From: Methylopilaceae bacterium
Lineage (GTDB): Bacteria; Pseudomonadota; Alphaproteobacteria; Rhizobiales; Methylopilaceae
DNA length: 64,000 bases
NCBI GenBank assembly: GCA_048594375.1
Contig: JBMDXK010000009.1
Location: 26,288-90,287 of the forward strand
Direction of reading: 5' to 3'
The translations under genes were made by a program, and so were the position numbers. The notes beneath the pieces were generated by a model. It did not search any database, was not told the DNA's origin, and saw nothing but the letters and a program-made list of their open reading frames with translations. Shown here one piece after another: positions 62,545-62,963 of the stretch. Position 1 is the first letter of the stretch, and every line of letters starts with the position of its first letter.

Positions 62545-62708
62545 TACTGCCCTTGTAACCGCAATGCTGACAGCCTCAAGAGTATAAAAACAGCGTTAAT
62601 TTTCTGTTTCATACAACAAAATTTTTTAGAAAATTGTAAGAAAATGAGATATTTTTGTGTTTTTAAACTCCCTTCTACACTGCCATGGTAAGGCACCGCG
62701 AAGGATTC

Positions 62709-62963
62709 CCCCCTGAATGCGTTTTGGTGAGGTGGAAAGTGCTGGCTTTGTGAGCACCGGAACAGAGTGTACGCAAAGTACATGAGTACCGGAGCGCAAA
62801 AAAGTCAGTGCTTAACACCCACTTCTCAAAACTAGCCCCCTGAATGCGTTCTGGTGAGGTGGAAAGTGCTGGCTTTGTGAGCACCGGAACGGAGTGTACG
62901 CAAAGTACATGAGTACCGGAGCGCAAAAAAGTCAGTGCTTAACACCCACCAGAACGCATTCAG
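62709..62963. repeat. tandemly duplicated 114-nt element (period 127 nt); the second copy is bracketed by a perfect 17-bp inverted repeat
   Basis: Copy 1 (62709-62822) and copy 2 (62836-62949) differ at 2 of 114 positions. ctgaatgcgttctggtg (62840-62856) is the exact reverse complement of caccagaacgcattcag (62947-62963). The latter overlaps the sctS stop codon. Confidence 0.9.

Follow-up and report, generated by a model that had tools for sequence, protein, structure and literature searches.

The 415-nt gap between the export-gate genes sctS and sctT in a chromosomal T3SS operon holds, on sequence comparison, a diverged member of an unnamed hairpin repeat family that has no Rfam entry and is spread through the Alphaproteobacteria. 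Very probably, the spacer contains a small non-autonomous mobile element that codes for nothing and resembles a MITE, in two copies of which one is complete and the other truncated, so that the odd export-gate gap can be explained as colonisation by a mobile repeat. We consider it similarly probable that the element is fairly ordinary selfish DNA and not a dedicated T3SS regulator.

The repeat pair in the sctS–sctT spacer

The window (the whole stretch of 64,000 nucleotides that was analysed) is chromosomal, as its genes include carB, ileS, an RluB-like gene, panK and the T3SS genes, and all four of sctR, sctS, sctT and sctU are intact in it. Their junctions are unequal: sctR and sctS are 2 nt apart, and the sctS–sctT gap spans 62545–62959 (415 nt). 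The features of the region are as follows, copy 2 being matched by a covariance model, R1, that was built from a 16-sequence alignment (A5) of full-length aligned members.

60685–61734, minus strand: sctU, full-length Pfam/NCBIfam match
61744–62544, minus strand: sctT, 266 aa, intact, Pfam and NCBIfam match; start kept in the 77% relative (L012)
62545–62708, minus strand: A+T-rich rest of the spacer, leading up to the sctT ATG and outside the element; AAGGG stands 6 nt ahead of that ATG
62709–62822, plus strand: copy 1, truncated; C-run, left arm (1 mismatch) and core, no right arm
62823–62835: 13-nt junction TTCTCAAAACTAG, unrelated to the arm, in place of copy 1's right arm
62836–62963, plus strand: copy 2, essentially complete; C-run, left arm, conserved core and right arm (R1 model)
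62840–62856: left arm CTGAATGCGTTCTGGTG of the perfect 17-bp inverted repeat
62874–62934, plus strand: apex core of copy 2, GAGCACCGGAACGGAGTGTAC - GCAAA - GTACATGAGTACCGGAGCGCAAAAAAGTC, homologous to the cores of contigs L018 and L042
62947–62963: right arm CACCAGAACGCATTCAG, exact complement of the left arm, covering the sctS TGA (minus strand, 62960–62962)
62960–63229, minus strand: sctS, 89 aa, full-length Pfam and NCBIfam match; stop codon inside the element arm
63232–63894, minus strand: sctR, full-length Pfam/NCBIfam match

An earlier note on this DNA had described a 114-nt direct repeat of period 127 with two mismatches, and re-measurement returned the same coordinates (62709–62822 and 62836–62949; 98% identity, 2 mismatches, spacing 127). 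We likewise recovered the perfect 17-bp inverted repeat with the sctS TGA in its right arm, and copy 1 indeed carries the left arm with a single mismatch (62713–62729) and no right arm. Within the window the unit measures 124–128 nt and has no coding capacity; ORFs called across it are spurious and, as the note had stated, fall out of frame between the two copies. A search with the arm pattern at ≤3 mismatches gave 5 matches against 0.21 expected by chance, the two that are not arms of the element being unrelated. Pattern search, repeat search and model R1 found no further copy in the 64-kb window, and a weak R1 match at 4527–4655 (16.9 bits), which lies inside an ORF and has a fold z of −0.19, was dismissed as chance.

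That sctS and sctT are normally adjacent, as the earlier note stated, holds in more distant relatives: a SctT homologue with 54% identity is encoded 12 nt after sctS (L013/L014) and one with 38% identity follows it with no gap (L015/L016), as against 415 nt here, and an R1 search of L013–L016 found no element. SctS is 89 aa long in all four lineages and ends in ...MV(R/H) plus stop, and two more distant ones end in CG(G/C)-TAG. From these loci the compact sctS–sctT junction is shown to be ancestral, the empty state at the T3SS locus being known only from the more distant relatives (L013–L016).

The closest relative (L012, 77%, a JGI contig) has a spacer of ~354 nt between sctS and sctT, filled by a different, G-rich palindrome (L012:3519–3670; 29-bp perfect arms TGGATCCCCACCCTGACCCTCCCCTTTTT and complement) and by A+T-rich sequence of ~150 nt before sctT. 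The palindrome recurs on this 7.8-kb contig at 159–257 and 7666–7680, and is therefore a second repeat family in the same spacer. A member of the window family with an internal deletion lies on the same contig (L012:3117–3198); it occupies the 82-nt gap from the sctR TAA to the sctS ATG, has its outer arms GAGACCTC/GAGGTCT and its right half preserved, stands in sense orientation and starts flush with the sctR stop. With a family copy after sctR and a different palindrome in the spacer of L012, these T3SS operons have evidently been invaded repeatedly and independently. A small ORF (MSTGAQKSQ...) common to the window and L012 was rejected as a gene, since it falls within the conserved core of the hairpin, and this core is also present as a direct repeat.

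Three further features were noted elsewhere in the window. Between sctU and a sctJ-like lipoprotein gene (59576–60301) lies a 383-nt stretch without a long ORF (60302–60684). An ORF at 46644–48590, with an RluB-type pseudouridine synthase at its N-terminal end, contains about ten tandem 78-nt (26-codon) repeats at 47565–48608 that give it a long repetitive C-terminal tail. A 34-nt A+T-rich intergenic repeat with an internal palindrome, GTTTCAATAAAATGGTCATTTTATTGGATTAAAC, occurs at 21009–21042 and 25655–25688 (88%), with weaker matches at 25368 and 32095.

Distribution and movement of the hairpin family

The earlier note proposed looking for homologues elsewhere, and BLASTN and model searches found copies at unrelated loci in many genomes. 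A degenerate core pattern matched a GC-rich metagenome contig from an unrelated organism (L018), on which the same core stands in a hairpin of ~125 nt with arms TCTGGTGAG...CACCAGA. Used as a blastn query, L018 matched 32 alphaproteobacterial megaplasmids and chromids in 1–3 places each, nearly all of them unannotated intergenic sequence; the hosts include Sphingobium, Novosphingobium, Shinella, Agrobacterium/Allorhizobium vitis, Phyllobacterium, Mesorhizobium, Bosea, Ensifer, Rhizobium and Aminobacter, and the plasmids of S. meliloti were absent among the matches. The window's own sequence as query gave weak matches to some of these plasmids.

All copies are near-perfect hairpins of 125–190 nt, with 141–144 nt measured for the unit in plasmid copies. 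They have in common an apex, GAG.ACCGGAGCG.AGCGTAC - loop - GTACGTGAGCACCGGAAGCGCAGAAAA, that is ~85–95% identical across bacterial orders, and an inner stem, CGAAAATGGTG / CCATTTGCAG; the outer stems vary by sub-family. Flanking genes differ from site to site and are unrelated. Copy number is low, at 1–3 places per Mb-scale replicon and one tandem pair in the 64-kb window; in A. vitis and Sphingobium, with 2–3 places per replicon, copies at different loci have the same arms. Short variants of ~100 nt that lack a 32-nt apex, recovered with model R1 (L027:13430–13530, L028:14207–14307 and L029:600–700), lie on contigs classed as viral by IMG/VR, and their apex was apparently lost by deletion between two direct repeats GAGCACCGGAGCG.

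Two sets of copies deserve separate mention. The element of a Shinella plasmid (Rhizobiaceae; L044:1457–1615) is 86–89% identical over 148–159 nt to that of Sphingobium plasmids (Sphingomonadaceae), far above the identity of the flanks, a likeness that suggests either horizontal spread or strong constraint. Ensifer adhaerens (L046:1466–1585) and Aminobacter sp. (L047:~1443–1577) carry copies at apparently the same etfB-etfA junction with arms ~75% alike, the Ensifer record being unannotated and placed by the match of its right flank to the Aminobacter etfB flank; these could be either an old orthologous insertion or the product of repeated targeting of one site.

The family corresponds to no catalogued RNA among the collections searched. 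The Rfam scan that the earlier note advised matched no family, with best scores in the spacer of 15–18 bits against thresholds of 39–70, and nothing at the element in five other loci. A 19-nt arm query gave 10 single matches to genome contigs, in unrelated taxa and at about chance level, which places the source genome outside the GTDB representatives; it gave only chance matches to viral contigs, and a phage collection contained no match; a text search of the literature for the core sequence also returned no match. Among candidate identities, an integron attC site, suggested by GCTTAAC, was rejected for want of a paired GTTRRRY box and of conservation of the motif in L018, and a group II intron domain V, SRP RNA and 6S RNA found no Rfam support.

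The clearest evidence for movement comes from two pairs of filled and empty sites. In A. vitis, a 142-nt copy separates an ABC-permease gene from an isocitrate-lyase-family gene in two plasmids and is exactly missing in four related plasmids (empty site AACGGT^CAGATTTT; insert AAAAGTCTGT...ACAGACTTT). The insertion falls inside the upstream gene's TGA or immediately behind it, with a duplication of 0–1 nt. In Sphingobium, a copy of ~141 nt is present in five plasmids and missing in three related ones, the empty site reading CCCTT-TAA-AGCGCG and the filled site CCCTT-TAA-[GGTTGTGTGGGG...CCCCACACAACC]-TAA-AGCGCG; here the target is the TAA stop of the upstream gene, and TAA, or its TA, is duplicated. 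These two polymorphisms show that the element moves. At another Sphingobium locus, dmpG, the sequences compared were too diverged to place boundaries. The A. vitis empty site also led us to reject the idea that inverted copies of target DNA make up the outer stems, since the hairpin was gained or lost there as a whole.

The MITE-like reading, already present in the earlier note, thus draws support from four observations: firstly, homologous hairpins stand at unrelated loci; secondly, their presence is polymorphic; thirdly, a TA(A) duplication was seen once; fourthly, the termini tend to be flanked by TA, which adjoins copies of the 'GG...CC' type on both sides in 5/10 and on one side in 3/10, often as CTAG or CTAA. 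The termini that define a would-be partner IS are GG(G/A)(C/T)...ATTCAG or CCCCCTGAATGCG. Among the plasmids searched, no transposase gene with the same termini was found, arm queries matching non-coding copies only, and the annotations show no RAYT or TnpA near any copy. A transposase supplied in trans and targeting TA/YTAR (IS630- or IS5-like) would move the element.

In 12/15 annotated loci an end of the element overlaps a stop codon or lies ≤1 nt from it. A target of TA/YTAR type, as suggested by the two empty sites and the flanks, would account for this habit: in GC-rich genomes, TA targets outside coding sequence would mostly be stop codons, which would leave surviving insertions flush with gene ends, and the target TA joined to the terminal G of the element could rebuild a TAG on either strand. 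Given this family-wide habit, landing at the end of sctS is not special to the operon; the earlier note was right that the element sits exactly there, and what it treated as a property of this insertion is general to the family. Ends on stop codons also matter for gene callers. Several annotated CDSs run into or through the element (L048:1–645, a pyridoxal-dependent decarboxylase; L053:1–691, a hydrolase; L042:1589–3055, a hydroxylase), and their C-termini are probably element-derived or over-extended.

Strand, structure and the probable history of the sct insertion

The unit around copy 2 is predicted to form one long hairpin, with −79.9 kcal/mol on the plus strand (z = −11.8 relative to shuffled sequences) and −66.4 kcal/mol on the minus strand (z = −7.0). 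The plus strand of the window corresponds to the 'core +' orientation of the family and is antisense to the sct operon. Model R1 scored copy 2 at 110 bits on the plus strand (E = 3.6e-28; model positions 1–134) and at 36.9 bits on the minus strand; copy 1 scored 78.1 bits over model positions 19–116 only.

Across the family, the consensus structure is a single unbranched hairpin, and every member pairs end to end. Standard pairs fill 92.4% of pair cells in the 16 sequences, compared with 77% in shuffles and 35–39% with slid partners, and double-sided changes occur in 28/39 pairs as against 14.9 ± 2 in shuffles, a count reached by 0/500 of them. The earlier note had named a lack of other copies and a lack of covariation as grounds for giving up its reading; what we found were dispersed homologues and covarying pairs.

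The two strands are not equivalent. The 'core +' orientation folds better in 16/17 copies, and in that orientation G.U pairs outnumber A.C mismatches in 16/16 aligned members (totals 67 vs 13; 42 vs 13 without two conserved wobble pairs). Known deamination biases predict the opposite sign of this asymmetry. Where copies are flush with a stop codon, as in the window, the 'core +' strand runs antisense to the touched gene in ~10–11 cases and sense in 2–3. The asymmetry hints at selection on one single strand, either RNA or ssDNA during movement, and, being family-wide, it is not accounted for by a plain double-stranded cut-and-paste model.

Selection on RNA would be expected if the hairpin were a functional structured RNA (a cis 3'-UTR or intercistronic element, or an antisense sRNA) kept to tune the stop-adjacent gene; at sct, it would lower or stabilise sctRS relative to sctTU through ribosome stalling, a block to 3'-5' exonucleases or an RNase III/E site. 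The apex conserved across orders, the strong covariation, the two conserved wobble pairs and the G.U excess in every member (67 vs 13) all fit this proposal, as do the fixed position relative to stop codons and the shared etfB-etfA junction of Ensifer and Aminobacter; moreover, REP hairpins ≤15 nt from a stop codon are reported to stall ribosomes (as summarised in PMC5082802). We nevertheless judge it unlikely. Flanking genes are unrelated between loci, and close strains, with target duplication, vary in whether they carry the element. In most stop-flush copies, as in the window, the strand that folds better is antisense to the adjacent gene, which leaves the mRNA with the weaker complement. 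Neither a promoter- or terminator-like signal nor an Rfam family was found, and a palindromic mobile element with no role as RNA can also show covarying arms.

The same observations bear on the roles suggested in the earlier note, namely attenuator, processing site or sRNA. None of them found direct support, and attenuator and sRNA are somewhat disfavoured, as the strand with the better fold runs antisense to the sct genes. Between 62300 and 63300 we found no terminator-like and no promoter-like site on either strand, and the minus-strand sequences that follow the two hairpins, GGGGGCTAG and GGGGGGAAT, contain no terminator-like U-run. Some consequences of the insertion would be incidental. 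The sctRSTU mRNA would carry the complement of the element, as two hairpins of ~−58 to −66 kcal/mol starting from the sctS stop codon, which could affect termination, mRNA decay or polarity; translational coupling of sctS and sctT would be lost, and the relative stability or expression of sctRS and sctTU may change. Since all four genes are intact, the element would be at worst mildly deleterious.

A bolder reading joins function and strand: more than selfish DNA, the hairpin would be a module that works on one strand, as RNA or ssDNA. A factor of the host or the element would recognise its conserved apex, and by lying flush with stop codons in a biased orientation it would modulate termination, decay or translation of the upstream gene. 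We hold this to be improbable. In the export gate, sctR and sctS are needed at 5 and 4 copies, and sctT and sctU at one each; were the reading true, the module would split sctRS from sctTU and help to set their different expression levels. The apex conserved across orders with covarying outer stems, the ends on stop codons and the single-strand wobble asymmetry are worth specialist attention.

The strand asymmetry could alternatively reflect movement as ssDNA by an HUH enzyme (IS200/IS605- or RAYT/REPIN-like), with insertion beside a short target, YTGA/TCAR, and without target duplication. Strand-specific G.T/G.U excess is what an active single strand would be expected to leave, and the A. vitis site has a duplication of just 0–1 nt, six TGA-flush copies have the sense context YTGA^ in common, and orientation to the adjacent gene is biased (~10–11 antisense vs 2–3 sense). 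Other features speak against this route, which we think has little chance of being correct: at the Sphingobium site TA(A) is clearly duplicated, and TA adjoins most 'GG...CC' copies; no RAYT or TnpA is annotated beside any copy; the element is far longer than REP units; and on the strand that folds better TCAR lies at the 3' side, where elements of the IS608 type (IS200/IS605) have their target on the 5' side.

Returning to the MITE-like element, the junctions of copy 2 suggest how it may have arrived. On its far side the element ends in ...CATTCAGGGGG and is followed by CTAG (62832–62835), the last four bases of the junction, which directly adjoin the C-run of copy 2 and may be a copy of the target site. 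The sctS side lacks both the C-run and CTAG, and the arm's own TGA comes directly after a conserved Arg codon; direct repeats matching at both ends of the window copy were not found, CTAG standing on one side only. Plausibly, copy 2 entered a C-TAG at the end of sctS, leaving CTAG on the far side, and then lost ~8 nt (TAG plus C-run) on the sctS side, whereupon the arm's own TGA would have become the sctS stop. Copy 1 would be a second copy that lost its right arm. The earlier note had the element "then partly duplicated", and there is indeed a second, partial copy; the two 114-nt units are, however, followed by 13 nt that differ entirely between them, which a simple tandem duplication of 127 nt would not give.

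No independent assembly spans the repeat region, the only other contigs being two from Logan SRR32316211, which end at ~62754 (L001, inside copy 1) and ~63017 (L017, inside sctS). The exact SctS protein has no database record, and a look-up of the ORFs spanning both copies for an independent assembly gave none either. The idea that the truncated copy is an assembly artefact and that a single element is real could appeal to the short-read contig breaking inside copy 1 and to these missing records, but it is very improbable, as the two mismatches and the unique 13-nt junction argue against an exact duplication made by the assembler and the other contig breaks inside sctS, off the repeat, so that breaks in this region are not repeat-specific.

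Comparison with known repeat elements

The family matched none of the named repeats that could be compared, RIME and Sm-repeats being compared by description only. With MITEs it has in common a length below 300 bp, the absence of coding sequence, terminal inverted repeats and presence/absence polymorphism; a related autonomous IS with the same termini was not found among the plasmids searched. Classic MITEs and REPs are also high-copy, whereas this family is low-copy.

Palindromic repeats of the REP type are a natural comparison. REPs and BIMEs are extragenic palindromes, often clustered or in tandem, that affect mRNA decay and can stall ribosomes near stop codons; REP/REPIN units are 20–40 nt long with a head of GTAG/CTAC type, make no target duplication and have a RAYT gene in the genome. 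By contrast, the unit described here is ~130–145 nt long and shows a TA(A) duplication at one polymorphic site. Closer in taxonomy are Br-REP1 and Br-REP2 of Bradyrhizobium, palindromes found in 3' UTRs and between convergent genes (PMC5082802). They resemble our family as alphaproteobacterial palindromic repeats, but are ~20–40 nt long, have other consensus sequences and occupy 50–200 sites per genome.

Alphaproteobacteria also harbour CIR (Caulobacter/Brucella) and RIME/Sm-repeats (rhizobia), which are intergenic repeats of ~100–110 bp conserved between species (PMC2229807; PMC2573895). CIR RNAs are described with two arms and a linker that expose GANTC (PMC2229807). Compared by description only, our family differs in being a single unbranched hairpin, with GANTC in only some members.

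The Correia/NEMIS elements of Neisseria are small and non-autonomous with terminal inverted repeats and a TA duplication, and are co-transcribed to give hairpins in mRNA (PMC2229807). The likeness lies in the small non-autonomous element, the terminal inverted repeats and, at one polymorphic site, the TA duplication; the difference is that Correia elements pair only their terminal repeats of ~24 bp and have an IHF site in the long form, whereas members of this family pair throughout.

With Correia the looser parallel, the closest known architecture is that of ERIC/IRU, a non-coding unit of 127 bp that forms one stem-loop closed from 5' to 3' end, has TA termini, lies in transcribed spacers within operons and has length variants (PMC2229807). 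The family described here, at ~125–145 nt, similarly folds as a whole into an imperfect stem-loop, has TA termini, lies between genes of an operon and has short, apex-deleted forms. It differs in its hosts, ERIC belonging to enterobacteria and this family to Alphaproteobacteria (it is architecture that is compared here, not sequence), and also in its 1–3 copies per Mb-scale replicon, its apex conserved across orders and its ends on stop codons.
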